DNA from: Malacoraja senta
Lineage: Eukaryota
Assembly: GCA_038087875.1 (NCBI GenBank)
Contig: CM075991.1
Coordinates: 1,798,001 to 1,862,000 of the forward strand
DNA length: 64,000 nucleotides
Direction: 5' to 3'
Under the pieces are notes generated by a model. The model did not search any database. It saw only the letters and a list, made by a program, of their open reading frames with translations, and was not told where the DNA came from. The position numbers and the translations under genes were made by a program. Shown here piece by piece: positions 2,721 to 48,908 of this stretch; position 1 is the first letter of the stretch, and each line of letters opens with the position of its first letter.

Positions 2721-5700
2721 CCATGTGGGGAGCGTAGTCCCCCACCCCCCCCCCCCCCCAAAAAATAGTGAACGGGAATTGGAACCGTTAATATGCCGGG
2801 AGATTGCAGGCAGCTGCAGAGTTGTCACAGTTCGGGGATATTTACTTTCCCAATATAGACTGGGACTGGCATAGACGTAGAGCCATGTCATAGAGCCCTT
2901 CGGCCCAACTCATCCATGTCAATCATGGTGCTCAGGGATTAGATGGGATGGAATTTGTCAAATATGTTCAGGGAAGTTTCATTTGGCAAAATGTAGAGGG
3001 ACCTACAAGGCAGAGGGCAGTGCTTGAACCATTCTTATGCAATTGGGATGGGCAAGGGACGTGTCAGTGGGCGAGCCTTTTTTGGACCACGGGACCGCAG
3101 TTCCCACACACCCGAACAAACTATTCACACAAACTTGATAATAAGGAACAGAAAAGCACTTATGATTTCATGATGTTATTGGCAACTTAGCAAAGGTTTT
3201 GTCAATGTGGTGAACATTATCCACTTTACAGTTTGGAACAAACTATGTGACGGATCTGCTCCGCCATCTACTGGCTGTGCCTCTGGTGATTCTCTTCAAA
3301 CTGATAATTAGGTTCGAGGTAAACAAAAAGCTCGAACAAACTGCTGGAGTAACTCGGCGGGCCAGACAGCATTTATGGAGAACATGGCTAAGCGACGCTA
3401 CGGATCGTGTCTTTGCTTACTTTGGTTTAAACTCAACAATCTGTGGGGATATATTTATTCTGATTCCGGTTCTCCAGAAATGCTGGCTGGCACAATGAAT
3501 GATTTCAGCATTTTGTAGTTTTTGCAGAAGCAAAAATACAAATATGTCTGACGAAAGGTATTGACCACAACGTCACCTAGCCATGTTCTCCAGATATACT
3601 GGCTGTCCCGCTGAGATTTTTTCGCACCTTTCTCTCCTATTGTCGCTTTGGGTTTCTGCTCAACGTTCGGCATCTGCAGTTCCTTGTGTCTATTTAAGTT
3701 CTGGTGACCATGTTCACAGGTATCACAGTAATATATCATGGTTACGGCACAGCCTTACATCTGGTGTGGCGGAGACAACAACGCAACAAAATGAAGTGCA
3801 TTCAATATTAACAGGTTAACACGGGTTACACAATTCCACAGAATTCTCAGTTTAATAACAGTTGTGAGGCAGTTCCTGATATTTGAAGAGTGGCACCGCC
3901 GTCACACAAGCTGAATAAAGCGGAACTGTGAAGTTCACCATGACTAAATAACTCTTTTGGAACCGGTAACAACTTTGGTCTAATGTACGCTGAGGCCTCC
4001 ACAATATGCATGCAGCCATCGAAGCCCTGGACTTTGAATGTCAGTTCCAGCCCCAGTTCAACATCCTGTCAACAATGCAGCAGCAACACACTGTCCTCCC
4101 ACAACACCATGCTGGAATGCAAGCCCAGATATTTGTCTTTAAATCTCTACAGTGCACATTAAACCAAAATTCTTCTGATGCTGAATTCATACACATTTTA
4201 AATGTTAATCTGAAGAGATGAAAAGTAAATCACTTTGGAATTTACTGTGAAGAGACGTGTGGTCAGTGTCCTGTGCTCTGGTGTGTTTTTGTTGGCTTCA
4301 TGACGCAAAAAGCACATTAGGTTGGATGAGCCTTACTGTCATTGGTAACCCTCAGGTGTGTATGTTGGAGCTCAAGCCTCCCATCCTAAGATGTGTGTAA
4401 TAGCTCCTCAGGGCTGCGAACTCGGCCCAGCTGCTTCATGAATGACATTCATACCAGTGTAGGGATGCGCATAATGTTCAATTCCATCTGCAACCTTTCA
4501 CCAAACAGGGCAGTTCATTTTTACAGCAAACAAGATCTAAGCAGCATCTTGTCGATTACCATGTGCCCCGCTGGTGCTGGCACTGATCATCTCCAACAAG
4601 AAGCAGTGTAACTACATTTCCTTGCTATTCATTTGGATAACTTTTGGCTCCACATTCACTATTCTGGAGGTTAGCATTGAGCAGGAACTCAACTGGACCA
4701 GCCATGTAAATTCAACAAAAGTAGTTCATGGGGAAGGGTTATGAATTCTACTGCAAACAACTCGCCTCTTGACATGATGTCCTCGCATAAATAAAATGCT
4801 TCGTACAGAATACATCCTCCCATTGACTGAAAAACAGAATATGAAAATCTATTAAGGAAACGGTCATGCTCTGCAAACATTAGCAGCTCACAGCATTCTC
4901 TCTGTTTCAGTTTCTTAGTGAAGTTTTTTTAATTTCTAATTCAGATCTCTGCTGTGCATTTTAGCATTTCATAAACCTAGTATTCAAAGTATGAATATGA
5001 TAATCCAGCACAAAATCAATAATTTAACATATTGTAATAACGAGTCTGGGATTCGAGCCGAAATGTCACCCATTCCTTCTCTCCGGAGATGCTGCCTGTC
5101 CCGCTGTTTTACTCCAGCTTTTGTGTCTATCTTCGTAGTAATTAGAGAATCAGCTGTTTTGTATAATTTATTTTTGGTGTCAAGAATTCAGCAGCTTCTT
5201 GTTCGGTTGGTCAGGTGGAATGGGTGATGGAGTAGAATGCAGATAAATGTGAGATGCTGCACTTTGGGAGCACTAATGGGCAGAACAGGTAGGGCTCTGG
5301 GAAGTATTGTAGAGCTGACGAGTTTAGGAAGGCTATTTTTTTCACACTAAGTGTGGTGGGGGTAGAGAATGTGCCAGAGGAGGTAGCTGAGTCAAGTACT
5401 ATTGCAACGTTTAAGAAACATTACACAGGTACATGGATAGGATAGGTTCCAAATGCAGCAAGTGGGAGTAGTGTAGATGGGACATGTTTGCCGGTGTGGG
5501 AAAGCAGGACTGAAGGGCCTGTTTCCACGCTGCAAGATCCTATGACTATTCCTTATAATGAGCTCCTGGAGGCATACCGAGGCAGCAGGCCTGGCTCGCC
5601 CCCTGTGGGAACGGGGGAGCCCACCTGGAGTGGGTCCCAGGCTCATCGTCTGCTTCTTGTACTAGAGGACCAGTAACTGGAGAGTGGAGAGAGCCTGCGC

Positions 5701-6379
5701 TGGCAGTGGACGCTGGAACAAAGGTCCGGGAAAAGAACCAGCGGTCTTATCCTCTTGCCCTCAAGGCCGGCTGTGGGAGCCGCCCCACTCTAACCCTCAC
5801 TCCGCCAACCCTCACCCCTCCCCCTCCGGGCATGAATGCACGAAGGCTGAATGCCGGAAGAGGAGCGAATGACAGTTTGCTCCGGATGGAGGCAACGGCT
5901 TCAACGGGGCTTTACAAATGAACTGACACAATGCTCAATTAACCCCTTCGGGAAGGGCCAGGCCATTCTTTGCTCATCCCATCAGGAATAATGGTGGGAT
6001 CTGATAAAGCCACTCAATCATGCTTCCAACGGGAAACAAATTTATATGCAAGTCCTATAATCATGAAAACTTATGGAAATCCTCAGTATACTGTCCCTTC
6101 AATATATCTGTAACATCAGGATTTCCAAAAAGGTAACAAATATCCAATGAGGGCAGATGAAATTGCTGTCTGATGCCGTGGCACCATCAAATAACGTGAA
6201 CTTCACACCATCTCCCAAAAAGGGGCTTTTGTTGAATAAAATAGCATCAGAAATGTTTGCCAAGTGAGGGAGAAGGATGAAACCGGTAAACATAATACAT
6301 CTAGTAAATAAACGTAAAATATCTGGCTCCAGAGAACATTGATGAACAAAAGAGGGATGACTCAGATTGGAGAATAGTG

Positions 6380-7945
6380 AAGTCCTTCTTTGACTCCCCA
6401 ATACACTGGTGGGAAGCTACCTTGGAGAGCATTCGAGGTTCTACATCCTCAAAGATGTTCAGAAAGCAAGAAAGGGTCAACGGGAATTGTACCAATTCCT
6501 GACAGACTTGCAGTATCTCATACATTTGCATTTGAGAGGGACGAATGTGAGGGCGGAACTCCCAGAGGTGAAGTGCCAGCAAAGTTCTCCAAGATCATGT
6601 TCTCATCCAGAGTCTGCTCCATGGAGCAAGATGAGTCGCGCTCACGCTTCTCCTTGACAAAGGTCCACAAGAGGAGTTCTGTGAGTTCACAGCCTTAAGA
6701 AAGAGACTGCTCGGTCACATTGTCACATACAAACATATTGAGGATCTGTAGATCCTTCTATACTGGTCTGTATGTCAGACAGACCATAGGTAGCACAGAT
6801 TCCCAGAACGCCCTGTATATGGAGATCTTGGCGGACAGCAAATTGAAGAGCCTGGAACAACTAATGATCCTGGCGGAACTGACTGGCTCCACCCATCCCT
6901 TTGACTTGAATACGGAAGCGATGGTTTGCCGTCTGAATTGTACTTGGCTCTGTGCGACTCGGTGTGCCAGGCCTGCTGGAAATGTACAATGATATGCTTC
7001 TGGTTGGCAGTATCTTAGACTCCTTGATGAAGGGCATCATCACCCTCATCTCCAAGCAGAAAGGGGAAGAGGATTATAGTAGACCATCTGATACCTTGCT
7101 GATACAATACCTTGTTGATGGTGAGGGACCTTCCCAGTCAGACCCTTCCTATACCACCAGAGTGTCTAAAAATGCATGTTGCTGCTGCTACAGAGAGGAG
7201 TCGGTGATAAGGTCATAACTGATAGAAGCAGAATTAGACCATTCGCACCATCAAGTCTATTCCTCCATTCAACCATGGCGGCTTTATCGCTTTCTCCTAA
7301 CCCCATTCTCCTGCCTTCTCCCTATAACCTCTGACACCCAATACAAATCTACCGGTTGCCCACCTCTTTGCAGAGCGTGGATTTACAAAAAGGCACTGGA
7401 GACAATTCATTGTCATGGTTCATCCCAAACAGTTCCGTAACCGAGGACGATCTGATTTACCGGTTGTTCCCATGGACACGTTGATGTCTCCAGACAGACA
7501 TCATGTGCTTCTGGAAGAAACATCAACATGACCAAAGATACTTATTCTTCCTCCCAAAACCTGTTGGTCTTCCAGCATAGCGTGATGTCCATCAGGGAAT
7601 GTTGCCGATGGCCCATTCTCGACTGTACGAATATGTGATGAATGAGGGTTGCACTGAAGCTTGGTGCAGCCAACACCACGGGTCTGTGAGGGAGGAGCAC
7701 AGACTAGAGTCCTTCTACTTCTGGACATGAAGGCCAGTGCAGTGGAGACGCCTCTCAAACAAGGGAAGGTACACCCTTGGTGGCAACATGAGTGGCAAGG
7801 GTGTTTTCTTTAAAAATAGATGAGAAAACTACTGAGTAGACACTATTGAATTTATAGACAATGAGAATGTATGGAGAGTTCTTGCAGTTTTTATTTTGTA
7901 TATACTTGTATTATAAATAAAGTTTATTTGTGGAAAAAATCTATT
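6380..7945 (+). mobile_element. Tx1/L1-group LINE fragments, internally deleted, with a nested CR1 3' piece at ~7205-7345
   Basis: FYILKDVQKARK.QREL, KIMFSSRVCSMEQDE.SRF, MKGIITLISKQKGE (RT N-terminus); degenerate C-terminus AHLFAE..SWFIP.SSVTED..LKLGAAN; AATAAA plus A-rich end near 7915-7940. Confidence 0.8.
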
Positions 7946-8060
7946 AATCATATACGTTATGCTATTTTTTTTTAAAGAATCCTAATAATGTAAATATTAG
8001 ATATCTTAAATAATTCTGCTCCTATCATTATTTGAAGACATATTTTCCTCTTCGTTCTCC

Positions 8061-8362
8061 TTAGTTCCTCATTACTTTTTCGTCCCGATGGATCCGTGGC
8101 AAAGTGTCGCCTCTCCAGAGTCCCAAGAGCTGAATTGTGACAAGTAGCAGAGAAATATAAGTGTTCCAATGCAATTTTCGTTTATCTTCAGTTTCTACAG
8201 ATGCATTGTTTGTTGTATTTTGATCACGGTAACATTTTTCCTGCACTTCTTTCTGGACCCGGTCTATCTCCAGTTTGTACAGGTATTCATGTTCCTTTAT
8301 TCTGTCTTGGATCTCCTCACTCTCCACTTCATCACTCAGGAGGTGGGGGTAGTACAGGCTCC
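8061..8362 (-). CDS. Candidate terminal coding exon of an unknown small coiled-coil protein with a C-terminal hydrophobic segment (left copy)
   Basis: Acceptor tgttttaatgatcacag|GG (phase 1). Open frame GSLYYPHLLSDEVESEEIQDRIKEHEYLYKLEIDRVQKEVQEKC...TYISLLLVTIQLLGLW...RN*, kept open in both arms. Confidence 0.55.
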
Positions 8363-9058
8363 CTGTGATCATTAAAACACACAGGTTGAAAAACTGCAGC
8401 ACAGTTGGCATCCTGTGAACGACAGCCAGACAAGATATTCAGAAGGTGCACGTATAATTAAAGTAGTAACTACATTTGTACATCTATCAGATACTCATCC
8501 TCCAACCTTTTATTAAACCTTCCTGGTCTACAATTGTCCTCAGACTTTTCCCGGCAGGCAGCGGAGAAGCCGAGGCTGCTGCTTCGAGAGACGGAGCCCG
8601 CGGCCGACAGAGTTGACGGAGCCTGCGGCGGAGACCTGGGTCGGCGCCACAGAGGACCTGGCAGCAATAGTGGAGAGGTCAGGAGATGGCGCCGACCGAC
8701 GGACTAGGGCGGATCACGTGGGATTGAAGACGCCATTGCCGGATGAAGCACAAAGGAGGACTCGGCGTGGGGGGGGGTCGTCGTGAGGGATGCGGGAGGG
8801 AACACCGGAGGACCCGGCGTGGGGGCCTGGCGCGGGGGAGGGGAAGAACAAAGGGGACCTTGTAACTTTGTAAGCGCCATTTATGTGGCGATTATTTGCA
8901 TATCTTGGGTATGCAAGTCAAGCATTTTACCGTGACTTGTCACATGTAATAATAAAGTATTAATTAATTCATCCATTCAGATATTTCACTGGAGGTGGCA
9001 AGTGAAGAGCAATTAATGAAATCAGGACACTGACAATCATTGTAACCACATGAATTAC

Positions 9059-9120
9059 CGGCACCGAAACCCTTTAGAAACATATTTAGATTTCATGAGA
9101 ACTTTGTCATCTATTTAAAT
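9059..9120 (-). CDS. Candidate 62-nt exon carrying the start codon (ATG at 9083-9081; MFLKGFGA-)
   Basis: Acceptor ttttctattatttag| and donor CCG|gtaatt. The ATG is in phase 1 register with the exon starting at 8362. Confidence 0.4.
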
Positions 9121-9329
9121 CTAAATAATAGAAAATCATAGATGGCATGTGTCTGGTGCATTATGATCAGTTAATCCCAAGTTTGGACTTTAAAAATCTC
9201 TATTTCCATCAGCAAGAAAAGACGAATGATACTAAAGCCAGTGGGCAAGCATTGACAGAGTGCTAATGATAATTAATCAGATAAAGACACAGCAGCAATA
9301 AAACGAAAAGCAGGTTAAATGAATACAGG

Positions 9330-9860
9330 TTGGCTAGTTGGCAGGAGGCAAAAGGTAGCAATAAAGGGGGCTTTTTCTGGTTGGCTACGAGTGACCAGCG
9401 GAGTTCCGTAGAGGTCATTGCTGTTGCCGCTACTCTTCACTCTTCACTCAAACCTCATTCAAAATTACCAAACAGTGAAAGACCTGGATCGAGTGGATGT
9501 GGAGAGGATGTTTCCACGAGTGGGAGAGTCATCAAGGACCAGAAGGTCGTAGCCTCCGAATTAAAGGAAGTTCCTTTAGGAGATGAGGAATTTATTTCAT
9601 CAGTGGGTGGTGAATCTGTGGAATTCATTGCCATAGATAAGGTGAAGTTCCGAAGGTAAGCCAGCCAAGAATATAAAAGAGGATAGTAAAAGCTTCTTTG
9701 GTTTGTGAAGAAGAAGAAAATAGTTAAGACCAAAATTGGACCCTTGGAGATTGAAAAGGGCAAATTTATTATGGGGAACAAGGAAATAACAGACGAGTTG
9801 AACAGGTACTTTGGATCCGTCTTCATATAGGAGGGCACAAGCAAGATTTTCACTGTACTT
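9330..9860 (+). mobile_element. Composite CR1 fragments (mirror at ~14890-15430, minus)
   Basis: KKKIVKTKIGPLE.EKGKFIMGN.EITDELNRYFG.VF CR1 ORF2 segment joined to 3'-end pieces. Confidence 0.75.
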
Positions 9861-9939
9861 GTGCATCACCATAGATGTGCACATGAGCATAAACTTGACG
9901 ACTTGAAATGCCTTAAAAGACACTTCACAAACTCGTCGA

Positions 9940-10195
9940 TCACCAGGCCAGGAAGGCATCGAGCGCCCACCGACTCTTACCTGGTCGCTTGTGGCCCAAA
10001 GTCGCTGTTGAGTGGGAGCTGGGGCGTCGCTACACAGGGCGCGGTTCACATTAGAGTGTGCGGGAAGCGCCGCCCGCCTCGACTCGCACCGGCGACGCGG
10101 GACAATGCCACTCCCTGTGACGTCACTGCCGTCCAACGGGCGCGAGATCAGGCGGCCGTTGGTCGATCGGAATTCAAAATCTCCCGAAGATCGAC
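9940..10195 (-). promoter_or_regulatory. CpG-rich promoter / candidate non-coding first exon
   Basis: High CpG density; palindromic CRE GTGACGTCAC 10117-10126; MYB-type sites CAACGG 10134-10139 and CCGTTG 10156-10161; CHR-like TTCAAA 10173-10178; strong minus-strand donor CAG|gtaaga at 9981/9980. Confidence 0.55.
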
Positions 10196-10204
10196 ATTAA
10201 AAGC

Positions 10205-11390
10205 CGGAGTAACTGAGCGGGAAACGCAACATCTTTGTAGAGAAGCAATGGGAGACGTTGCGGGTCGAGACCCTTCTTCAGACTAGTTAGGGATAAGGGG
10301 AACGAGAGGTATTGACGATGATGTAGAGAGATAAAGAACTAATGAAAGATATGCAAAAAAGTAACGATGATAAAGGAAACAGGCCATTGTCTGTTGGGTG
10401 AAAACGAGAAGCTGGTGCGACGTGAGTGGGGGAGGGGTGGAGAGAGAGGGAATGCAGAGGTTACTTGAAATTAGATAATTCAATATTCATACCATTGGGC
10501 TGTAAGCTGCCCAAGCGAAATATGAGATGCTGTTCCTCCAATTCGCGTTTCGCCTCACTCTGACAATGGAGGAGACCTAGGACTGAAAGGTCAGTGCGGG
10601 AATGAGAAGGGGTGTTAAAGTGTTTAGCAAACTGTAGGTCAGGTGGGTACAGGCGGGCTGAGCGAAGGTGTTCAGCGAAACGATCGCCCAGTCTACGTTT
10701 AGTTTTGCTGATGTATAAGAGTCCACATCTTGAACAATGGATACAATAAATGAGGTTGGAGGAGGTGCAAGTGAAACTCTGCCTAACTTGAAAGGAATGT
10801 TATGGTCCCTGGACAGAGTCGAGGGAGGAGGTACAGGGACAGGTGTTGCTTCTTCTGCGGTTGCAGGGGAAGGTATCTGGGGAGGGGTGGTTTGGGTGGG
10901 AATGGATGAGTTAACCAGGGTGTCGCGGAGGGAATGGCCTCCGCGGGAGGTGGAAAGGGGTGGAGATGGGAAGACGTGGCTAATGTTGGGATCCCGCTGG
11001 AGGTGGCGCAAATTTCAGAGCATTGTGTGTTGTATGTGACGGCTGATGGGGTGAAAGGTAAGGACGATGGGGACTCGGGCTCTGTTGTAAATAGGGGAGC
11101 AAGGGCGGAGCTGCAGAGACACGAGTGAGGGTCTCATCTATGATGGCAGAGGGGAACCCCTGTTCCCCAAAGAAAGAGGACATCTCGGATGTCCTGGTAT
11201 GGAACACCTAATTTTGGGAGCTGATGCGGCATAGACGGAGTGTTTATGGGGAAAGAGTCTTTGCTGGAAGCAGGGTGGTAAGACATGTGGTCGAGATAGT
11301 TGTGAGAGTCAGTGGGTTTGTAATAGACATCAGTCTATAGACTATTTCCCGTGCTGGAGACAACGAGATCAAGAAAGGGGAGGGAGGTTT
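10205..11390 (-). mobile_element. Penelope-like element 3' part (RT thumb, GIY-YIG endonuclease, pLTR), degenerate
   Basis: RHLQRDP..SHVFPSPPLS..SLRDTLVNSS, FHTRTSEMSSFF..QGFP; hammerhead-like module at 10253-10283. Confidence 0.85.
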
Positions 11391-11875
11391 AAACTACGCG
11401 ATGGTGGAGATACCCGCCTGCGGTCACGTGGTGTTGGGTGGCTTCTGTGTCGGATGTTGGAATGTCGGAGAAATTGTTCTTCAAGAAATTCCTTCAAAGG
11501 TCATTGCTGTTCATAGAGATCCACTGAATTCCCAAGGTAACTATCGATGAAGGAGGTCATGCAGCCTTTCCGAATTAATCCATTGACACAGATCCCATGT
11601 CCTCTGTCATTCTGGCTTCCAGGTTGGTTTTAGTAAGTCCAGAATTTTCTTCTCCATTTGCTCACCTTGGGAATAATTTAATGTTTCGCGCTCTTCTTAT
11701 GGTGATAAAAATGTACTGATATCTGGAATATGTTTACGATAACAGCTGATGTGACATATATGGACTTCCAAAAAGCCATCTGACAAAGTGCCACATGGGG
11801 ACTTTGCCCCCTCAGTATTGAAGGTCTCGGAATAAGAAGGCCTTCAAGAAGCATAGATGGAGAATTAATTGGGAG

Positions 11876-12170
11876 GTTATGGTGGCGCAGCGGTGGAGTT
11901 GCCGCCTTACAGCGAGTACAGCGCCGGAGACTCGGGACCGATCCCGACGACGGGTGCTGTCTGTACGGAGTTTGTACGTTCTCCCCGTGACCTGCGTGGG
12001 TTTTCTCAGAGATCTTCGGTTTCCTCTCACACTCCAAATTTCTACATATTTGTAGGTTAATTGGCTTGGTAAATGTAAAAATGGTCCCTCGTGCGTGTAG
12101 GATAGTGTTAAAGTGCGGGGATCGCTGGTCGGCGCGCACCCGGTTGGCCGAAGGGCCTGTTTCTCTAAAC
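11876..12170 (+). mobile_element. tRNA-derived SINE with CR1-like tail
   Basis: A box TGGCGCAGCGG, degenerate B box, tail ggccgaagggcctgtttc. Related copies at ~14040-14500 (-), 26340-26570 (+), 57570-57770 (+) and 59440-59750 (-). Confidence 0.8.
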
Positions 12171-13948
12171 CAGGGCTCGTACGGTCCTTGAAAGTCATGG
12201 AATTTGAAACGCTGTTTATGAATGCCTTGAAAGTCCTTGGATTTATCATAGGTCCTTGAAAATTTCGTGCTTGAAATTTCACTTTTTATGATAAAAGTAT
12301 TAATTCAGTAATAGAGTAATTTGGCGTTTTTCCCTCAAGTTTATAATGCGTATTTTGTTTAAAAGTCGGGAAACATTGTTAAACTAAACTAAACTAAACT
12401 GAATTACATTAAGTTTGTTTTATACAGAATTGAAGAATGTGCAACATGGTTCGTGGGTGGAGCTAAGAAATGTAAGGTAAATGACATGGTTGTTGTGAGT
12501 GTAACATAGGTCATCAAATATTCAACAGGGATTAGGAGAACAAATATGCCAAGAGATTACAGGCAGCTGCAAATCTAATAGGATTATCATAGTAGTGGAT
12601 TTATCTGCCCAAAAATAGCCTGGCACTGCCATGGTGCTAAAGGCTTAGATGGTAGAATTTTGAAATGTTTTCAGAAAAGTTTCCTCAGGCAACATGTTGT
12701 AGGTCATGTTGTAGGTCCTACAAAAAGAGAGGACAAACCTTGATTTTCAATTAGGAAATTGTGAAGGGCAATGACTAAAGTGGCTGTGAGCGAGACTTTT
12801 GAGACCAATGAGCGCTGTTTTATTTGCTTTGGAATTGTTACAGATAAAACATGGTGGGCCCACACGTTTAACATTTTGAATCGGGAAAAGGTTACATTTG
12901 ATTGTACCAAACAGTAATTTGCTGAAGTTGACTGAAATAGGTTGTTTGTGGGCAAATGGTCCTAAAGAAAGTGAGATAATTTGAAAAGTGTGATGAGTTC
13001 ACGGCATGCATATTCCTGTTGGAGTGTAGCGCGTGTGGGTAAGGATGCTTGGATGATGAGAGAAATTAAAGGTGTGTTCAGGAACTGAGGAGCATACTTA
13101 AGAAGGAGATCAAAACAGGGGCATGAGTTAGCTCTGGCAGAGAATATTAAGAAAAATCCAAAGAGATTGTATGTACATTAAAGGGTAGAAGGTGACTTGA
13201 AAGAAAATAGAGGTTGATCACAAACCAAAGCAACCATCTCCGTGTTGGGCAACTTGGGACAGTTAATATATTGTGGACAATCCGTATGTTGCATCTTTTG
13301 GACCTTGTCAATACCTACTCCCAATCATTTAGCACACTAATCTCTTGTGAGGGACTTTGTCAAAGGCTATTTAAAAGTCCAGATACACCAAATCCACAGG
13401 CTCTCCCTTATCCATTCTACATATTATATCTTCAAAAAAGTCCAGACGTTTAGTCAAGCATGATTTCCCCTTCATAAATGAATGCTGACTTTGACCGATC
13501 CTGTCACTGCTTTCGAAATGCGCTGCTATTACAAATTACGCTGCTGGAAATTTGGCCCTCCAGGTGGGTTCCCGTTGGTCATCGATCCGCGGCGGGCGAG
13601 CCGGGCCTTCCTGGCGAGTCCCTGGTCTCCGGCAAGTGAGCTGCACCTTCCAGGCGGGTCCTCGCTCTCGGGGCCGCAACTCCCCGGGATAATCCCGCCG
13701 TGCGAGAGAAAGTCTCTGAATGCTGGTTCTCCGTTTAGAATTTCTGTAGTTTAAGTATATGTATGCTTGACATGTTAATGTATCTGAATGTTTTTTTGTC
13801 TAAATACCAATTTCTATGACAAGATACGAAGAGGTCAGGTTGGTTCACATTCAAACAGAATGTGGGACCAGAATCAGTCACTGGAGTGTAACGTTCTCAC
13901 TGGGATTTCAGTAAAGAAAAAACATGGTAAAATAAAATGACATATAAA

Positions 13949-14025
13949 AGTGACTTTGGTAAATCATTACATAGCTTTTACTAAATGTTTTAGTAAAAGC
14001 TATGTAATGATTTACCGAAGTCACT
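13949..14025. repeat. Near-perfect palindrome: 37-bp arms, 3-nt loop
   Basis: agtgactttggtaaatcattacatagcttttactaaa-tgt-tttagtaaaagctatgtaatgatttaccgaagtcact; one mismatch (a G:U pair in RNA). Confidence 0.95.
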
Positions 14026-15632
14026 GTTAATTTGTTTGGTTTAGTTTAGTTTGGAAATGCAGTGCAGAAATAGGCCCTTTGGCCCATCGAGTCCGCACTG
14101 ACCAGCAATCCCCGCACATTAATTTTAAGGCAGAGATGGATAGATTTTTGATTAGTGCGGGTTAAGGGGAGAAGGCAGTAGAATGGGGTTAGGAGGAAAG
14201 ATAGATCAACCAGATGGGCCGAATGGCCTAATTCTGCCCCTATCACTTACGACCTTATGGCCTTAATATTACCCTGCACACACCAGGGACAATTTTACAC
14301 TTATACATGTATACCAAGACAATTAACCAACAAACCTGTACGTCTTTGGAGTGTGGGGGGAAAACGAATATCTTGGAGAAAACCCTAGCAGGTCAAAGGG
14401 AGAATATACAAGCGCCGTACAGACAAGCATCCGCAGTTAGGATCGAACCCGGATTTCTGGAGCTGTAAGGTAGCAACTCTACCGCTGCGTCAACATGGCG
14501 CCAGCTGCCGCCGTAAAGGCTAATTTCTAAGGCTCAGAAAACAGTTAAAGAAAAATCTTACTATACATACACGTAGGTACAATCATACTTAAGCACAAGA
14601 GTGTAAGAATAGTAGATTACACCGAGGCGGTACACCAAAGGCACCACGTTTCCAGCACCATTTGTGTGATTCAAGTCCAAAGTAGTTCAAAGTGAAGAGT
14701 CTTAACGTGGCCACAAAGGCCGGTTGTCCTGGCAACGACATTGGATCGGAGTGGCAAGGTCGACCTTGTGTTTGTACGGGGAAATGAGACTAGCTTAAAT
14801 GGAGCATCTTGGTCGGTATGGACAAGTTGAGTTAAAGGGCCTGTTTCTGTTCTGTATGACTAGGTATGACCTTTTATATGAACAGCTATGGTGATGCACA
14901 AGTACAGTGAAAATCTTGCTTATGTCCTCCTTAGTGAAGACGGGTCCAAAGTACCTGTTCAACTCATCTGTTATTTCCTCGTTCCCCATAATAAATTTGC
15001 CCTTTTCAGTCTCCAAGGGTCCAATTTTGGTCTTAACTATTTTCTTCTTCTTCACATACCAAAGAAGCTTTTACTGTCCTCTTTTAAATTCTTGGCTGGC
15101 TTACCTTCGTACCTCATCTTATCTGTGGCAATGAATTCCACAGATTCAACACCCACTGAATTCCTTATCTCCGAAAGGAACTTCCATTAATTCGGAGGCT
15201 ACGACCTTCTGGTCTATGATGACTCTCCCACTCGTGGAAACATCCTCTCCACATCCACTCGATCCAGGCCTTTCACTGTTCGGTAATTTTGAATGAGGTT
15301 TAAGTGAAGAGTGAAGAGTTGCGGCAACAGCAAGGACCCCTGCGGAACTCCGCTGGCCACTCGTAGCCAACCAGAACCCCCCCCCCTTTATTGCTACCTT
15401 TTGCCTTCTGCCATCTAGCCAACCTCTATTCATTTTAACCTGCTTTTCATTTTATTGCTGCTGTGTCTTTATCTGATTAATTATCATTAGCACTCTGCCA
15501 ATGCTTGCCCACTGGCTTTAGTATCATTCGTCTTTTCTTGCTGATGGAAATAGAGATTTTTAAAGTCCAAACTTGGGATTAACTGATCATAATGCATCAG
15601 GGACATGCCATCTATGATTTTCTACTATTTAG

Positions 15633-15694
15633 GTTTAAATAGATGACAAAGTTCCCATGAAATCTAAATACGTTTCTAAAGGGTTTCTGCACTG
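15633..15694 (+). pseudogene. Mirror 62-nt exon in the right arm; start codon is ACG at 15670-15672
   Basis: Splice sites tttag|G and CTG|gtaatt are retained; the ATG of the left copy reads ACG here. Confidence 0.35.
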
Positions 15695-16402
15695 GTAATT
15701 CATGTTGTTACACTGATTGTCTGTGTCCTGATCTCATTAATTGCTATTCACTTGCCACCTCCAGTGAAACATATCTGAATGGATGAATTAATTAATACTT
15801 TATTATTACATGTGACAAGTCACAGTAAAATTCTTGGCTTGCATACCCAAGATATGCAAATAATCGCCACATAAAGGGCGCTTACAAAGTTACAAGGTCC
15901 CCCTCTGTTCTTCCCCTCCCCCGCGCCAGGCCCCCACGCCGGGTCCTCCGGTGTTCCCTCCCGCATCTCTCACGGCGATCCTCCCACGCCGAGTCCTCCT
16001 TTGTGCTTCATCTTGCAATGGCGTCTTCACTCCCACGTGATCCGCCCTGGTCCGTCGGTCTGCGCCATCTCCCGACCTCTCCACTATTGCTGCCAGGTCC
16101 TCTGTGGCGCCGACCCAGGTCCCAGTCGCAGGCTCCGTCAACTCTCTCGGCCGGTATCTCCGTCTCTCGAAGCAGCAGCCTCGGCTTCTCCGCTGCCTGC
16201 CGGGAAGAGTCTGAGGACAATTGTAGACCAGGAAGGCACCTACACATACTATTAAAAGGTTTGAAGATGAGTATCTGGTAGATGTACAAATGTAGTTTCT
16301 ACTTTAATTACACGTGCACCTTCTGAATATCTTGTCTGGCTGTCGTTCACAGCACGCCAACTGTGCTGCAGTTTTTCAACCTGTGTGTTTTAATGATCAC
16401 AG

Positions 16403-16704
16403 GGAGCCTGTACTACCCCCACCTCCTGAGTGATGAAGTGGAGAGTGAGGAGATCCAAGACAGAATAAAGGAACATGAATACCTGTACAAACTGGAGATA
16501 GACCGGGTCCAGAAAGAAGTGCAGGAAAAATGTTACCGTCATCAAAATACAACAAACAACGCATCTGCAGAAACTGAAGATAAACGGAAATTGCATTGGA
16601 ACACTTATATTACTCTGCTACTTGTCACAATTCAGCTCTTGGGACTCTGGAGAGGCGACACTTTGCCACGTATCCATCCGGACGAAAACATAGTGAGGAA
16701 CTAA
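16403..16704 (+). CDS. Candidate terminal coding exon, right-arm paralog
   Basis: Same acceptor and an open frame of the same length as 8061-8362, with few amino acid differences, all in the C-terminal half. Confidence 0.5.
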
Positions 16705-16821
16705 GGAGAACGAAGAGGAAAATCAATGTCTTCAAATAATGGTGGAAGCAGAATTATTTAAGATATCTAATATTTACATTATTAGGGTTCTTTTTTTTAA
16801 TTAACATAAAATATATGATTA

Positions 16822-18390
16822 ATAGATTTTTTCCACAAATAAACTTTATTTATAATAAAAGTATATACAAAATAAAAAGTGCAAGAACTCTCCATACATT
16901 CTCTTTGTCTATAAATTCAATAGTGTCTACTCAGTCGTGTTCACATCTATTTTTAAAGAAAACACCCTTGCCACATGTTGCCAGCAAGAATTTACCTTCC
17001 CTTGTTTGAGAGGCATCTCCACTTGACTGGCCTTCATGTCCAGAAGTAGAAGGACCCTAATCTTTTTCCTCTCTCACCGACCCGTGTTGTAGGCTGCACC
17101 AAGCTTCAGTGCTACCCTCATTCAGCACATACTCGTACAGTCTGGAATTGGGCCTTCGGCAACATTCCCTGATGGACATCACGCTATGCTGGGAGACCAA
17201 AAGGGGATTGGGAGGAAGAATAAGTATCTTTGGTCATGTTGATGTTTCTTCCAGAAGCATTTGATGTATGTCTGGGAACATCAACGTGTCCCTGGGAACA
17301 GCCCATAAATCAGATAGTCCTCTGTTACGGAGCTGTTGGGATGAACCATGATAATGAATTGTCTCCAGTGCCTTTTTGTAAATCCACACTCTGGAAAGAG
17401 GTGGGCAACCGGTAGATTTGTATTGGGAATCGGAGGTTATGGGGAGAAGGCAGGAGAATGGGGTTAGGAGAAAGCGATAGAGCCGCCATGATTGAATGGA
17501 GGAATAGACTTGATGGGCAGAATGGTCTAATTCTGCTTCTATCACTTATGACTTTATCACCGTCTCCACTCTGTTGCAGCAGCAACATGAATTTTTAGAC
17601 AGACTCTGATGGTATAGGAAGGATTTGACTGGGAAGGTGCCTCTCACCATAAGCAAAGTATTGTATCAGCAAGGTATCAGATGGTCTAATATAATCCTCT
17701 TCCCCCATCTGCTTGGACATGGGGATGATGATACCCTTCCTCAAGGAGTCTGAGATACTGCCAACCAGAAGCATAGCATTGTACACTTCCAGCAGCCCTG
17801 GCCCACCGAGTCCCACAAAGCCAAGTACAAGTCAGACGGCAAACCATCGCTTCCGTGAGTTTTATTCAAGTGAAAGGAATGGGTGGAGCCAGTCAGTTCC
17901 GCCAGGATCATTAGTTGGTCCAGACTCTTGCTATCCTCCAAGATCTTCATATACAGGGCGTTCTGGGAATCTGTGCTGCCTATGGTCTTTCTGACATACA
18001 GACCAGTATAGAAGGATCAGCAGATCTTCAATATGCTTGTATGTGACAATGTTACCGAGCTGTCTCTTTCTTAACGCTGTGGATCACAGTATTCCTCTTA
18101 CGGACCTTTGTCAAGGAGAAGCGTGAGCGCGACTCACCCTGGTCCATGGAGCAGACACTGGATGAGAACATGATCTTGGAGAACTCTGCTGGCACTTCAC
18201 CTCTGGGAGTTCCGCCCTCATATTCGTCCCTCTCAAATGCAAAAGTATGAGATACTGCAAGTCTGTCAGGAATTGGCACAATTCCCGTTGACCCTCTCTT
18301 GCTTTCTGAACATCTTTGGGGATGAAGAACCTTGAATGCTCTCCAAGGTAGCTTCCCACCAGTGTATTGGGGAGTCAAATAAGGACTTCA
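16822..18390 (-). mobile_element. Mirror copy of the Tx1/L1-group fragments in the right arm
   Basis: ORFs 18111-18359, 17741-17950 (KTHGSDGLPSDLYLALWDSVG) and 17595-17816. Confidence 0.8.
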
Positions 18391-21300
18391 CTATTCTCGA
18401 ATCTGCGTCATCCCTCTTTTGTTCATCAATGTTCACTGGCGCCAGTTATTTAACGTTTACTTTCTAGATGTATTATGTTTACCCCTATCATCCTTGTCCC
18501 CCACTTGGCCAAACATTTCTGATGCTATTTTATTCAACAAAAGCCCATTCTTGGGAGATGGCCTGAAGCATGATTGAGTGGCTTTGTGAGATCCCACCAT
18601 TATTCCTGATGGGATGAGCAAAGAATGGCCTGGCCCGTCCCGAAGGGGTTAATTGACCATTGTGTCAGTTCATTTGTAAAGCCTCGTTGCAGCCATCGCC
18701 TCCATCCGGATCGTCAGCGAACTGTCATTCTCTCCTCTTCCGGCATTCAGCCTTCGTGCTTTCATGCCCGGGGGGGGGGGGAGGGTTGGAGGGGTGAGGG
18801 TTAGAGGGGGGCGGCTCCCACAGCCGGCCTTGAGGGCAAGGAGATAAGACCCCTGGTTCTTTTCCCGGCACTTTGTTCCAGCTTCCACTGCCATCGCCGG
18901 CTCTCTCCACCCTCTGGTCCTCTCGTACAAGAAGGAGACGACGAGCCTGGGACCCACTCCAGTAGGGCTCCCCCGTTTCCACGGAGGGCGAGCCGGGCCT
19001 GTTGCCTCGGCATGCCTCCAAGTGCTCGTTATAAGGAGTAATTATAGGATCTTGGGGCGTGGAAACAGGCCCTTCAGTCCTGCTTTCCCACACCTGCAAA
19101 CTCTCTACTCTACTTCTACTCTACTCCCACTTGCCCGCATTTGGCCCAAGTAACCTGTCTAAATGTTTCTTAAACGTTGCAAAAGTACCCGACTCAGCTA
19201 CCTTCTATGGCACCTTGTTCTATACCCCCACTACCCTTATTGTGAAAAAGTTACCCTTCCTAAATCCCTCAGCTCTGCAATACTCCCCAGAGCCCCACTG
19301 TTCACCATGTAGGTTCTGCCCATTAGTGCTCCCAAAGTGCAGCATCTCACATTTATCTGCATTCTATTCCATCAATCATTCCTCAGCCCACCTGACCAAC
19401 CGAACAAGAAGCTGCTGCAATTTTTGACACCAAAAATAAATTATACTCAACAGCTGATTCTCTAATTATTACGAAGATAGACACAAAAACCTGGACTAAA
19501 TCAGCGTGACAGGCAGCATCTCTGTAGAGAAGGAATGGGCGACGTTTCGGGTCCGGTCCCAAACACTCATTATTACAATATGCCAAATTATTCATTTTGT
19601 GTTGGATTATCATATTCATACTTTGAAAACCAGGTTTATGAAATGATAAAATGCACAGCAGAGATCTGAAGTAGAACTTAAAAAGACTTCAGTAAGAAAC
19701 TGAAACATACAGAATGCTGTGAGCTGCTGGTCTGCAAAGCCTGACAGTTTCCTTAATAGATTTTCATATTCTGTTTTTCAGTCTTCTGCACGAAATTGTA
19801 TTTATTTTATTTATGTGAGGACATCATGTCAAGAGGCGAGTTGTTTGCAGTAGAATTCATAACCCCTCCCCCTGAAATACTTTTGTTGAATTTACATGGC
19901 TGGTCCAGTTGAGTTCCTACTCAATGCTAACCTCCAGAATAGTGAATGTGGAGTCAACAGTAATCCAAATGAATATCAAGGAAATGTGGTTACACTCCTT
20001 CTTGTTGGAGATGATCAGTGCCAGCACTAGCGGGGCACATGGTAATCGTCAAGATGCTGCTTAGTTCCTGTTTGCTGTAGAAATGAACTGCCCTGTTTGG
20101 TGAAAAGTTGCAAATGGAATTGAACATTATGCACATCCCTACACTGGTATGAATGTCATTCACGAAGCAGCTGGGCCGAGTTCGCAGCCCCGAGGAGCTA
20201 TTACACTCACATCTTTGGATGGGAGGCGTAAACTCCAACAACCACACCTGAGGGTTTCCAATGGCAGTAAGGCTCATCCAACTTAATGTGCTTTTTGCGT
20301 CATGAAGCAAACAAAAACAGTCCAGTGCGCAGTACACTGACCACACGTCTCTTCACAATAAATTCCAAAGTGATTTACTTTTCGTCACTTCAGATTAACA
20401 TTTATAATGTATTTGAATTCAGCATCAGACGAATTTTGGTTTAATGTGCACTGTAGAGATTGAAAGACTAATATCTGGGCTTGCATTCCACCATGGTGTT
20501 GTGGGAGGACAGTGTGTTGCTGCTGCATTGTAGACATGACGCTGAACTGGGGCTGGAACTGACATTCAAAGTCCAGGGCTTCGGAGGCTGCATGCATATT
20601 GTGGAGGCCTCAGCATACATTAGACCAAAGTTGTTACAGTTTCCAAAAGAGTTATTTAGTCATGGTGAACCTCACAGTTCGCATTTATTCAGCTTGTGTG
20701 ACGGCGGTGCCACTCTTCAAATATCAGGAACTGCCTCACAACTGTTATTAAACTGAGAATTCTGTGGAATTGTGTAACCCGTGTTAACCTGTTAAGATTT
20801 AATGCACTTCATTCTGTAGCGTTGTTGTCTCCGCCACACCAGATGTAAGGCTGTGCCGTTACCATGATATATTACTGTGATACCTGTGAACATGGTCACC
20901 AGAATTTAAATAGACACAAGGAACTGCAGATGCCAGAATTTGAGCAGAAACCCAAAGCGACAATAGGACAGAAAGGTGTGAAAATATCTCAGCGGGACAG
21001 CCAGTATATCTGGAGAACATGGCTAGGTGACGTTGTGGTCGAGACCTTTCGTCAGACATATTTGTATTTTTGTTTCAGCAAAAAACTACAAAGTGCTGGA
21101 ATAACTCAATGTGCCAGGTAGCATTTCTGGAGAACCGGAATCAGAATAAATATATCCCCACAGATTGTTGAGTCTAAACCAAAGTAAGCAAAGACACGAT
21201 CCGCAACGTCGCTTAGACATGTTCTCCATAAAGGCTGTCTGGCCCGCCGAGTTACTCCAGCAGTTTGCGCTTTTTGTTTCGCTCGAACCTCATTATCAGT

Positions 21301-21999
21301 TTGAAGAAAGTCACCAGAGACACAGCCAGTAGATGGCGGAGCAGATCCGTCGCATGGTTTGTTCCAAGCTGTAAAGTGGATAATGTTCACCACATTGACA
21401 AAACCTTTGCTAAGTTGTCAATAACATCATTAAATCATAAGTTATTTTCTGTTCCTTATTATCAGGTGTGCGTGAATAGTTTGTTCGGGTGTGTGGGAAC
21501 TGCGGTCCCGTGGTCCAAAAAAGGCTCGCTCACTGACACATCCCTTACCCTTCCCAATTGCCGAAGAATAGATCAAGCACTGCCCTCTGCCTTGTAGGTC
21601 CCTCTACATTTTGCCAAATGAAACTTCCCTGAACATATTGGACAAATTCCATCCCATCTAATCCCTCAGCACGATGATCGGCATGGATGAGTTGGGCCGA
21701 TGGGACTTTATCCGTGCTCTATGACATGACTGGACTTTGTGCCTTCCCCACAGTGGGAACCATTGTGGGGGGGATGTTTTTATGTTTAATGTTAAATTCT
21801 TCTTTAATGTTCTGTTGTATTCTTATTAGTGTGCTGCAATGGCAACTCGAATTTCACTACACCAATTGGTGTATGTGACAATAAATGAACCTTTGAACCT
21901 TTGAGTCTACGGCTATGCCAGTCCCAGTCTATATTGGGAATATCACCTAACTGTGACAACTCTGCAGTTGCCTGCAATCTCCCGGCATATTAACGGTTC

Positions 22000-33979: not shown

Positions 33980-34437
33980 CTGCGGGAGTGATAAAGAATG
34001 ACAGGAATCTCAGTGCGTGAGAGACGGCATCGCACGGCGAGGTTTGTCCAATTATGGAAGAACGGCGACATTGGAAAAATCATCAGGACAGATTGTGTAT
34101 AATTCTGTTATGTACAAGGACCCGTTGTTGGTGCACGGCGACTGGGAATGGTTTCTGTTTTCTACCTCCATTCAAGTGCAGGTCTACAACACAGTATATG
34201 GAAAACAAAAGCCGACATGAACATGTACTATCTAATAGGCATGTGGTCGACATTACAGTCGGGAGTGTCACCTTCTTGGAGTGAGAACAGAACTGCTCGT
34301 GGGCTGCTTTCTCGGAACATTGTATTTCATTTCATGAAAACTTTGAAGCACGGAAGTGAATACAGAAAAACTCAATCCGTGGAACGATTTCCCACACAGA
34401 TGCCCGGTTACTGTGTGATGGAAGAGACTGAACTCAC

Positions 34438-34569
34438 CGTCATTGTCGACATCATCGCCGGCAACTGTGGTCTTCAGAAGGTCATCGTCGCCAGCGCCCA
34501 TCGAGAACTGACAACCCCGAGAAGCGATGGTTTTACTCTCGGCATCGTCGTAGTCGTCAGGAACCAGGT
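34438..34569 (-). CDS. SRCR receptor: cytoplasmic exon (DLVPDDYDDAES...)
   Basis: cctcctag| and ACG|gtgagt; 132 nt, phase 1-1; YDDA motif. Confidence 0.8.
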
Positions 34570-35012
34570 CTAGGAGGAAGCATAAGCCAGAATTATGGTC
34601 CTGAAAGTCAATATTGTACAGCAAGCTCCGCCTGATAAGAGATTCTGTTGATCGTGTGAATGGGGATTTGGAAGGAGAGAGGATCTTGAGCCTTCTTGTG
34701 GCGATGAACTAATTAATCGCGCATCAAGCCTGCGCATTCATTTCACACAGCAAGGCCTACAACGCATTGTGTGTCAAAGGAGAAACATTGAATGTTTTGT
34801 TCAATCACACAGCTGGTTACAGACGAGAGATGTTTCTTCAAATTCAAACTCGATCACTGTTCTCTCGGAAAGAAAATATTTTCCAACACCTTGAGATCTT
34901 TTCCCACTCATTCTCGGCGGACATTATCGCACACATTTCTATGTTCGTTTCTGATCACAGGCAGAATGAAATAAAATAAGAAAAAGAGGAAACAAAATAA
35001 ATTTGTACCAAC

Positions 35013-36109: not shown

Positions 36110-39100
36110 CAGACAAGAGGGAGCAGCTGATTGGGAGTCAGATCCCTGCTGATTGTACTGTATTGTAGCAGTTTGTTTTGTATTGTATCCAGGGTAAGGG
36201 GAGTATGAGGGCCAGGGCAGTTTACTGTTCTGGATGTCAGATGTATTGTATCCAGGGTAAGGGGAGTATGAGGGCCAGGGCAGTTTACTGTTCTGGATGT
36301 CAGATGTATTGTATCCAGGGTAAGGGGAGTATGAGGGCCAGGGCAGTTTACTGTTCTGGATGTCAGATATATTGTATCCAGGGTAAGGGGAGTATGAGGG
36401 CCAGGGCAGTTTACTGTTCTGGATGTCAGATGTATTGTATCCAGGGTAAGGGGGGAGTATGAGGGCCAGGGCAGTTTACTGTTCTGGATGTCAGATGTAT
36501 TGTATCCAGGGTAAGGGGAGTATGAGGGCCAGGGCAGTTTACTGTTCTGGATGTCAGATGTGGGAAGTCATGGAGTCTGATAGCCCTCCAGACGTCCACA
36601 TCTGCGCCAGGTGTATCGAGATGGGGCTCCTAAGGGACCGTATTAGGAACCTGGAGCAGCAGCTCGTTGACCTCCGTCTGGTCAAGGAGAGCGAGGAAGT
36701 CATTGAGAGGAGTTACAGGGAGGTGGTCACTCCAAGACCACAGGAGGCAGGCAAGTGGATCACGGTTGGGAGAGGCAAGGGGCACAGGCAGGGACTAGAG
36801 AGTACTCCGGTGGCTGTACACCTTGACAATAAGTACTCCTGTTTGAGCACTGTTGGGGGGGACAGCCTACCTGGGGTAGCGACAGCGGCCGGGCCTCCGG
36901 TACAGAGACCGGTCCTGTTGCTCAGAAGGGTAAGGAAAAGAAGAGGAGGGCAATACTAATAGGGGACTCTATAGTTAGGGGGTCAGACAGGCGATTCTGT
37001 GGACGCAGTTGGGAGACCCGGATGGTAGTTTGCCTCCCTGGTGCCAGGGTCTGTGATGTGTCTCAACATGTCCAAGATATCCTGAAAGGGGAGGGAGAGG
37101 AGCCTGAGGTCGTGGTACATATAGGTACCAATGACATCGGTAAAAAAAGAGGTCCTGAAAGGAGAATTTAGGGAGTTAGGAGGGGAGTTAAAGAGTAGGA
37201 CAGCAAAGGTAACAATCTCGGGATTACAGCCTGTGCCACGCGACAGTGAGAGTAGGAATGGAGCGAGGTTGAGGATAAATGCCTGGCTGAAGGACTGGTG
37301 CAGAGGGCAGGGATTCAACATTCTGGATCATTGGAACCTCTTTTGTGGAAGGTGCGACCTGTCCAAAAAGGATGGGTTGCACTTGAACCCGAGGGGGACC
37401 GATATCCTGGCTGGGAGATCTGCAAAGGCTACTGGGGAGACTTTAAACTCGAATGGTTGGGGGGAGGGACTCAAATAGAGAAAGCTATTAGACAGTGTGT
37501 GAGGCAGGAGGCAGAGAAAGATAGCACTCAGACCCAACATGTAGGGGGGAAAGAAGAAAACAATAATAAACAGAGAATAAGAGGTGGTGGGGTTCTTAAG
37601 TGGGTGAGCAGAGAAACCGAGGGGTGTAAAATGCGGGCGGAAGCAATAGGTAGCAAGGTGAAAAGTAAAAGTGGCAGGCAGACAAATCCAGGGCAAAAAT
37701 CAAATAGGGCCACTTTTCAACATAATTGTATAAGGGGTAAGAGCGTTGTAAAAACAAGCCTGAAGGATTTGTGTCTCAATGCAAGGAGCATTCATAATAA
37801 GGTGGGTGAGTTGAACGTGCAGATAGCTATTAATGATTATGATATAGTTGGGATCACGGAGCCATGGCTCCAGGGTGACCAAGGCTGGGAGTTGAACATC
37901 CAGGGATATTCAATATTCAGGAGGGATAGAGAGAAAGGAAAAGGAGGTGGGGTAGCGTTGCTGGTTAGAGAGGAGATTAACGCAGTGGAAAGGAAGGACA
38001 TTAGCTTGGAGGATGTGGAATCGGTATGGGTAGAGCTGCGAAACACTAAGGGGCAGAAAACGCAGGTGGGTGTTGTGTACAGGCCACCTAGCAGTAGTGG
38101 TGAAGTTGGGGATGGCATCAAACAGGAAATTAGAAATGCGTGCAACAAAGGCAAAACAGTTATAATGGGTGACTTCAATCTACATATAGATTGGATGAAT
38201 CAAATTGGCAGGGGTGCTGAGGAAGAGGATTTCGTGGAATGTATGCGGGATAGTTATCTAAACCAACATGTACAGGAACCAACGAGAGAGCAGGCTATTC
38301 TAGACTGGGTATTTAGTAATGAGGAAGGGTTAGTTAGCAGTCTTGTTGTGCATGCCCCCTTGGGCAAGAGTGACCATAATATGGTTGAGTTCTTCATTAG
38401 GATGGAGAGTGACATTGTTAATTCAGAAACAACAGTTCTGAACTTAAAGAAAGGTAACTTTGAGGGTATGAGACGTGAATTGGCCAAGATTGACTGGCAA
38501 TTAGTTCTAAAAGGGTTGACGGTGGATATGCAATGGAAGGCATTTAAAGACTGCATGGATAAACTACAAAAATTGTTCATCCCAGTTTGGCAATAGAATA
38601 AATCAGGGAAGGTAGTGCATCCGTGGATAACAAGGGAAATCAGGGATAGTATCAATGCGTACAAATTAGCCAGAAAAAGCAGCATTCCAGAGGACTGGGA
38701 GAAATTCAGAGACCAGCAGAGGAGGACAAAGGGCTTAATTAGGAAAGGGAAAATAGATTATGAAAGAAAACTGGCAGGGAACATAAAAACTGACTGCAAA
38801 CGTTTTTATAGATATGTGAAGAGAAAGAGCTTAGTTAAAACAAATGTAGGTCCCTTGCAGTCAGAAACAGATGAATTGATCATGGGGAACAAGGATATGG
38901 CGGACCAATTGAATAACTACTTTGGTTCCGTCTTCACTAAGGAAGACATAAATAATCTGCCGGAAATAGCAGGGGACGGCGGGTCAAAGGAGATGGAGGA
39001 ACTGAGTGAAATCTAGGTTAGTCGGGAAGTGGTGTTGGGTACATTGAATGGATTAAAGGCCGATAAATCACCAGGGCCAGATAGGCTGCATCCCAGAGTA

Positions 39101-42614: not shown

Positions 42615-42747
42615 CTGTGAACATTATTGCAAACACATTTTATCAACTTATTCTAATTAGGTTTTCTGCATTAAAGAAACTAAAAACACATTTAATTGTG
42701 ATTTTAAAGTGTTATAATGATTCAGGAATCTGTCGAACACGACGTAC

Positions 42748-43059
42748 CGGAACAAATAACAATGACATCCTCCTTGTGATCACAGTCATGCTGACCGAGC
42801 GGTGAAGCCAGACACCGGGACAGGAATGATTCACTTCCTGTGCATTTGACTTCATCCAGCCAGATATCCCCGGAGACTGGGGCAATGGGAGCCGCTCCTG
42901 GAGTCCAACGAGCAGCGCCACATCCCAACTGTCTGCAGACGACATTGGCATCAGCAACATCCCAGGAGTCATCACACACTGTGCCCCAGCTGTTGTTGAA
43001 CAATAACTGAACCCTTCCGGAGCAATTGTTGCTGCCGCCATCAAGCCGCAGTGGTAAAT
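42748..43059 (-). CDS. SRCR receptor: membrane-proximal group B SRCR domain exon
   Basis: LRLDGGSNNCSGRV..WGTVCDDSW..VVCRQLGCG..IWLDEVKC..CDHKEDVIVICS; 312 nt, 8 Cys. Confidence 0.95.
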
Positions 43060-43149
43060 CTGTAAAGTTAAAAATAATCACTTATTATGCGTTAAATACA
43101 CATGCGGAATTGACGTCAGGCTGATGCTAAAATTAATAAGATGACTCGC

Positions 43150-43224
43150 CTGGTAAACGGCGAGATTGAGATTCATTTCCTTCGTCACAGGCCTTTCCAC
43201 TGGATCTCTCTGGCATTTCGGCAT
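43150..43224 (-). CDS. SRCR receptor: 75-nt interdomain linker exon with GC donor
   Basis: cttctccacag| and CAG|gcgagt; DAEMPERSSGKACDEGNESQSRRLP; phase 1-1. Confidence 0.7.
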
Positions 43225-43307
43225 CTGTGGAGAAGAGGTGGATGCTGACGGTTTTATACATGCAGGTTTAATATGTCAGCCGCCATATGATGTCTTTCTT
43301 GTGTTAC

Positions 43308-48830: not shown

Positions 48831-48908
48831 CTAGAGAGCCGGGTCCAGCAACAAGAAAAACAACAGTCTATTGAAGAAACACCAGTAAACGATAGTCACC
48901 TATTCATC

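Follow-up and report, generated by a model that had tools for sequence, protein, structure and literature searches.

Does the short open frame in the left arm of a palindrome on contig CM075991.1 of the skate Malacoraja senta belong to a living gene, and to which family does it go back? The window, that is, the whole stretch of DNA that we analysed, comprises 64,000 nucleotides (assembly GCA_038087875.1, positions 1,798,001 to 1,862,000 of the forward strand), and its contig is called C15 below. An earlier note, made from the letters of the window alone, had proposed at positions 8061 to 16704 a small gene of no assignable family, duplicated head-to-head and coding for a tail-anchored-like microprotein of about 108 residues. 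We found instead that the unit descends from an ITPRIPL1-type gene, that a deletion of about 1.3 kb removed its whole Mab-21 domain, that the left copy retains the first exon, splice acceptor, ATG, a frame of 116 codons and the poly(A) signals, and that the start is lost in the other copies examined. As to its present state, the reading that we prefer, at slightly less than an even chance, is that the left copy is an expressed, weakly constrained stub.

Ancestry, deletion and gene model of the left copy

Within the skate's own genome, the terminal-exon peptide matched 51 places, more than expected by chance, among them long single frames of 547–577 codons on the same contig as the window. These frames encode proteins of 530–538 residues, and all three that were tested in Pfam carry Mab-21_C above the cut-off. 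The window frame aligns with the N-terminus of the intact paralog P0004 at 62% identity over 111 residues (E 1e-37), and a search with P0004 retrieved 45 proteins of which every named one (excluding those called “hypothetical” or “unnamed”) was ITPRIP, ITPRIP-like or ITPRIPL1, with ITPRIPL1 of coelacanth and lungfish scoring above ITPRIP of lungfish, besides weak matches to cGLR1 and cGAS chains. In a midpoint-rooted tree of 26 rows, with no ITPRIPL2 row (the locus L034, described below, was left out) and with the window row filling 21% of the columns, the chondrichthyan proteins grouped with the ITPRIPL1 rows against the ITPRIP rows (support 100/100), and the window copy fell inside a skate clade of eight rows (support 100/99). 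The neighbourhood agrees, given that NCAPH (Cnd2 matches, C15:1.36–1.39 Mb) lies beside the paralog cluster, about 32 kb from its first intact member, and that the gene list in the accessible part of a human study runs in the order SNRNP200, ITPRIPL1, NCAPH (PMC9352006), which supports an ITPRIPL1 ancestry. By these alignments, the window peptide corresponds to the N-terminal fifth of an ITPRIPL1-type protein of the Mab-21/cGAS-like family, and the unit that had seemed to belong to no family can thus be assigned as a truncated paralog.

The window protein shares with ITPRIPL1 (CD3L1) and with the chondrichthyan “ITPRIP-like” proteins (for example XP_055517974.1 and XP_078284837.1) the N-terminal region recognised by alignment and hydropathy, namely a hydrophobic leader, an acidic helix and a membrane span, which is 61–66% identical to skate proteins, and it also has in common with them the first exon, the AG|GATG acceptor and the NCAPH-side cluster. 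In contrast, it is a skate-clade duplicate that ends 16 residues past the membrane span, without the Mab-21 nucleotidyltransferase-fold domain that is present in all three intact paralogs. Therefore, judged by its sequence, the window copy is derived from the family but is not a full ITPRIP/ITPRIPL member. ITPRIP itself (DANGER) is more distant in the tree and has a separate ITPRIP-clade gene on contig C905. The intact paralog resembles the cGAS, cGLR and MAB21 nucleotidyltransferase-fold proteins, through Mab-21_C and weakly through the cGLR1 and cGAS chains, whereas nothing of this domain is left in the window copy.

The deletion was located by comparison with the intact paralog L013, with which the DNA similarity runs from 8491 down to 8042 and resumes at 8022, about 1.33 kb further on, in the 3' untranslated region (UTR) of L013. 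At this junction (8022–8042, minus strand), the similarity jumps from base 6230 to base 7556 of L013, so that about codons 123–537, the stop and the start of the 3' UTR were lost. Near codon 112, two extra bases relative to all five undeleted paralogs put the last residues in another frame, which ends in a TAA at 8063–8061, just before the junction. The retained 3' UTR contains two AATAAA signals (7890–7928, minus strand), the first of which aligns with an AATAAA in L013. The intron carries a repeat-like insertion (approximately 8520–8980), common to the deleted copies and without alignment in intact L013, over which the summed contig depth is high in whole-genome-type runs.

The gene model begins with a CpG-rich first exon (9981–10150, minus strand, 5' end approximate; CpG observed/expected 1.31 at 10001–10200) followed by the donor CCAG|GTAAG after 9981. 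Six of its eight genome-wide matches are full homologues, all on C15 and 74–82% identical; the donor is unchanged in five of five other copies, and four copies stand upstream of cluster paralogs in matching orientation. The CpG exon and donor of the earlier note are therefore genuine family features. In the Logan protein P0059, of the L013 type, a leader of 41 residues matching exon 1 runs directly into the family methionine, from which protein sequence alone we infer a spliced transcript joining exon 1 to the ATG. The family acceptor AG|G (8412–8414, minus strand) stands directly before this ATG, and AG|GATG is the same in all five undeleted paralogs. From the ATG at 8411, the frame runs for 116 codons to the TAA (8061–8411, minus strand) and contains a hydrophobic N-terminus (about residues 1–19; mean Kyte–Doolittle value 2.1 over residues 5–15, like the paralogs), an acidic helix (about 26–79), a membrane span (about 80–100, with the second hydrophobic stretch of the hydropathy profile around residues 86–96, as in the paralogs) and a short tail. 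An AlphaFold2 model, of modest confidence (mean predicted local distance difference test score 69, predicted template-modelling score 0.30), shows helices at residues 2–19 and 26–101. These features predict a type I layout and not a tail-anchored one.

All the sites read earlier do exist, i.e., the GT after 9981, the AG and GT around 9120–9059 and the AG before 8362, with compatible phases and the translation of 108 residues, and a gene-derived unit is indeed present, but it is not a family-less microprotein. The supposed acceptor at 8362 falls inside codon 17 of the longer frame, and the start and the acceptor were both misplaced, with the consequence that the hydrophobic N-terminus was cut off and a predicted type I protein looked tail-anchored. 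The 62-nt exon (9059–9120, minus strand) is at most an optional 5'-UTR exon: its splice sites exist, and its donor GT is common to four of the five undeleted paralogs (L013, L014, L016 and L017; L015 is not alignable), but its AG is confined to the two arms and its ATG to the left one. We dropped the idea that this ATG is a new product of CpG decay, since the outgroups do not fix the direction of change, and claim only that it is not conserved. We recommend that the annotation adopt the 116-codon model.

Palindrome arms, mirror copy and the amplified SRCR unit

The palindrome reported earlier was found again as a left arm (2896–9884) and a right arm (14876–21704), separated by a spacer of about 5 kb and aligning in inverted orientation in two pairs, 6201–9884 with 14876–18568 (91.8% identity) and 2896–6026 with 18565–21704 (89.8%). 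An assembly artefact as the origin of the arms is ruled out by their divergence of 8–10%, and is also disfavoured by an independent-looking contig set of run X1 over the left frame, with one difference in 308 bases, X1 being possibly the source sample. The four sequence runs used here (X1–X4, with X2 and X4 from a single sample) have the character of genomic DNA, namely intergenic cover and very deep repeats, and hence yield no splice junctions.

The mirror copy in the right arm kept an open frame (16354–16704, plus strand; 11 substitutions), and the ATG>ACG change in its 62-nt stretch (15633–15694, plus strand) is as the earlier note had described; in addition, the true start is also ACG, the first base of the coding exon is changed from G to C, and no match to exon 1 was found in the spacer or the right arm; the arms end at 9884 and 14876, and the donor lies 97 nt beyond. 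Lacking both exon 1 and the ATG, the mirror paralog is probably non-coding, as had been suspected. The gene is not limited to two copies, since 23 of 29 matches in a junction search span the deletion junction, namely those in the two arms and a further 21 spread over C15 and 10 other contigs. Among these 23, the left copy is the only one with exon 1 nearby, and all 13 distinct amplified copies examined (of the 21) carry ACG, lack 7 bases and have 8 additional ones, and are therefore startless and frameshifted. Being the only copy with exon 1 and ATG, the left copy is probably the source of the other deleted copies, a conclusion qualified by the fact that outside the frame the left, right and amplified lineages are nearly equidistant. 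CpG-rich stretches unrelated to exon 1 occur in the spacer (13401–13800 and 14401–14800) and could be an alternative promoter for the right copy.

The amplified copies probably travel with a large unit, of which one example was examined. On C685, the 147 kb between two copies (225–372 kb) match window positions 20310–59898 at 91–98% and contain the same SRCR exons, and the right arm holds the same position relative to the SRCR gene as the truncated copy of this C685 unit. Most likely, to judge from this shared arrangement, the right copy and the amplified copies are promoterless passengers of the amplification of the neighbouring SRCR gene. A unit of about 100–160 kb is repeated some 20 times, on C685, C173, C316, C1502, C5931, C128, C1038, C2869, C3258, C4760 and C1547 and at C15:3.23 Mb. 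Contig depth over the arm, which is a rough guide, reaches 500–1700 in X1 vs. about 30–115 in X2 and suggests a lineage-specific amplification. The gene itself is a multi-domain scavenger-receptor gene with five SRCR (PF00530) exons (window 42722–50053, minus strand), probably extending to 34268 and beyond 60000; a frame with a tyrosine-acidic stretch (34268–34708) may be its cytoplasmic end, with a putative resemblance to CD163/WC1-like receptors. No second clear gene of the unit appeared in a Pfam scan of 100 of its 205 long frames (those unlike window frames), in which six of the seven matches were, or were likely to be, of mobile-element type and the other was a PHD finger. At 3.5 kb from a truncated copy, and on the other strand, locus L035 (C128:63529–64748) is a 3' half of intact L013 with 98% identity. 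No description of the SRCR amplicon turned up in the open-access literature searched. The window also contains LINE-type (long interspersed nuclear element) reverse-transcriptase fragments throughout, a 63-base tandem repeat of about seven copies (36116–36621) and 200 N bases.

Persistence or decay of the left copy

The signs that the left frame has been kept come mainly from two other organisms, where the deleted form is also present: the 5' breakpoint is crossed by two X3 contigs, whose shorter sides measure 34 and 38 letters, and by two X2 contigs with a shorter side of only 21, below our 31-letter rule. Over codons 1–110, the left frame differs from X2 by 10 synonymous and 8 non-synonymous changes (p 0.005 against a neutral share of 0.25; omega, the dN/dS ratio, 0.27–0.43), counting the differences assignable to three single-copy-depth contigs, and p is 0.04 if all five unlisted differences were non-synonymous. 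Moreover, the four small indels listed among the X1–X3 contigs all lie after the stop and none inside the frame. The dN/dS comparisons gave a synonymous excess against X2 and, between left and right, the neutral-looking result given below.

Several observations count against a constrained and expressed stub. The X2 count draws on 40 of 88 differences, pieced together from separate contigs, and the X2 and X3 contigs do not show the state of the ATG. Left and right differ by 3 synonymous and 8 non-synonymous changes (omega about 0.8–0.9, neutral-looking), left and an amplified copy by 9 and 15 (p 0.12, omega 0.55), and on the left branch most changes are non-synonymous. In X3, a gap of 143 bases (8042–8184) in one contig takes away the membrane span and the stop, and another contig changes the stop. 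Two members of the paralog cluster, L016 and L017, are frameshifted, the cluster often shedding genes. In a collection of 5.8 billion, no proteins of 63–203 residues resembling the stub were found, an exact look-up of the stub protein gave no record, and a search of 50% representatives gave only three matches, all long proteins. The divergence between left and right is low in the frame (3.2% vs. 7.2% outside, with none of 132 overlapping windows as low), but the low values continue into the repeat insertion (5.2%) and some derived bases are common to both arms, as would be expected from arm-to-arm conversion; we therefore rejected it as proof of selection, conversion explaining it equally well. 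In the intact paralogs, omega is 0.4–1.0 over codons 1–60 and 1.2–3.9 over codons 61–110, where the changes are mostly non-synonymous, which hints at diversifying selection close to the membrane span; this fast evolution weakens dN/dS as a test.

The left copy may instead be a decaying unprocessed pseudogene, possibly still transcribed, in which the deletion and the 2-base shift disabled the gene while the frame survived by chance and by arm-to-arm conversion. We regard this as quite possible, somewhat short of an even chance, since the whole Mab-21 domain is gone, the right copy and all 13 amplified copies examined lack the ATG (the 13 having in addition two frame breaks), left vs. right looks neutral, a gap-free stretch of 348 nt has a probability of about 0.11 at the indel rate of the arms, X3 holds a broken copy, no protein record of the short form exists in the searches above, and the cluster undergoes birth-and-death. 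What speaks for the stub over the pseudogene is that the ATG is kept only in the copy with exon 1, where start and frame are intact, together with the synonymous excess against the X2 contigs (p 0.005–0.04) and the absence of small indels inside the frame among the X1–X3 contigs.

The remaining explanations are far less probable. If the transcript mattered rather than the protein, the intact paralogs would be modulated by an RNA that carries the family first exon and 3' UTR, and the left copy indeed retains exon 1 with its donor, the acceptor and the signals of the 3' UTR; however, the 3' flank diverges by 7–9% between the arms, no slower than elsewhere, and the only sign of constraint is codon-based, which makes this role improbable. 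We consider very improbable the splicing of the 62-nt exon with its ATG to 8362, since, although the sites are in phase and the 9059 donor is shared with paralogs, the conserved acceptor stands upstream of 8362, a position 50 bases into the coding exon, exon 1 is joined directly to the family methionine in P0059, the ATG and AG are restricted as described, and with the conserved acceptor the ATG of the 62-nt exon is out of frame. A GIMAP tail, to which the earlier note had seen a loose resemblance, or a transposable-element remnant would suit the coiled-coil-plus-hydrophobic layout and the many dispersed copies, but this can practically be dismissed: it is refuted by the alignments to ITPRIP-like proteins, all homologues are of that type with no GIMAP among them, and the copy number tracks the large amplicon that holds the SRCR gene. 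In Pfam, the short peptide gave only sub-threshold chance matches (Fucose_iso_N2 and others), which were discarded, with no match of GIMAP or transposable-element type and none to the AIG1-type GTPase domain of GIMAP proteins.

Relatives and possible role of the stub

The ITPRIPL1-type cluster (C15:1.42–1.54 Mb and 3.08 Mb) comprises three intact copies, at least two frameshifted full-length copies and further fragments. Locus L028 (C15:3019716–3019871) is the exon 1 most similar to the P0059 leader; it faces away from the intact gene, which lies 64 kb distant at 3083364, presumably because of a local inversion or a mis-oriented scaffold. The named skate ITPRIP-like record P0052, of 316 residues, lacks most of the C-terminal part of Mab-21 by an in-frame internal loss and, by its sequence, is a second and different domain deletion in the ITPRIP-like family. 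Locus L034 (C5:82612000–82616500), an 884-codon frame with two long tandem-repeat insertions, is presumably ITPRIPL2-like, a name that we take from its layout. The ITPRIPL1 family is already known; neither a Mab-21-less duplicate nor the skate ITPRIPL1 expansion was found in the open-access literature searched.

With the signals that it retains, the left copy is likely to be transcribed and would yield a membrane-anchored, ectodomain-only stub. Exon 1 would be spliced to 8412, and nonsense-mediated decay is not expected because the stop lies in the last exon. The hydrophobic N-terminus would direct the chain into the endoplasmic reticulum, leaving the acidic helix to face the lumen or the cell surface above one membrane span and a tail of 16 residues. 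Such a stub would present the outward-facing part of ITPRIPL1 without the cytosolic domain, and might act alongside the intact paralogs as a decoy or as a ligand only.

Some truncated receptor paralogs retain the ectodomain and act as decoys, and the window copy is likewise a partial duplicate with an outward-facing part and an anchor, so that decoy activity would here be by analogy only; no decoy example for ITPRIPL1 was found in the literature searched. In human ITPRIPL1, according to the accessible part of one report, the ectodomain and not the intracellular domain binds NRP2 (PMC13365830), and ITPRIPL1 is described as binding CD3-epsilon in the accessible part of another (10.1101/2022.02.25.481189); from these activities a ligand-only or decoy role is our best functional guess. 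The accessible text of a further study places ITPRIP at the outer nuclear membrane (PMC6550788). It also weighs against the proposed role that the skate helix is only 16–22% identical to that of bony-vertebrate ITPRIP/ITPRIPL1, so that the ligand activity need not carry over and the analogy is loose. The fullest form of the idea, that skates evolved and keep an ectodomain-only ITPRIPL1/CD3L1, an immune ligand or decoy of 116 residues at the edge of a 20-fold amplified SRCR array, is unlikely in our estimate; if true, the ligand role would be separated from the Mab-21 domain, and it would be suggested to date to the earliest jawed vertebrates.

In summary, if the stub is made and selected, it would be a natural split of ITPRIPL1 into its outward-facing and cGAS-like parts, within a lineage that stands at the base of T-cell immunity, and the function of each part could then be tested directly; otherwise it is a dead duplicate of the usual kind. 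In both cases, the locus reveals a skate ITPRIPL1 expansion and a large SRCR amplicon.

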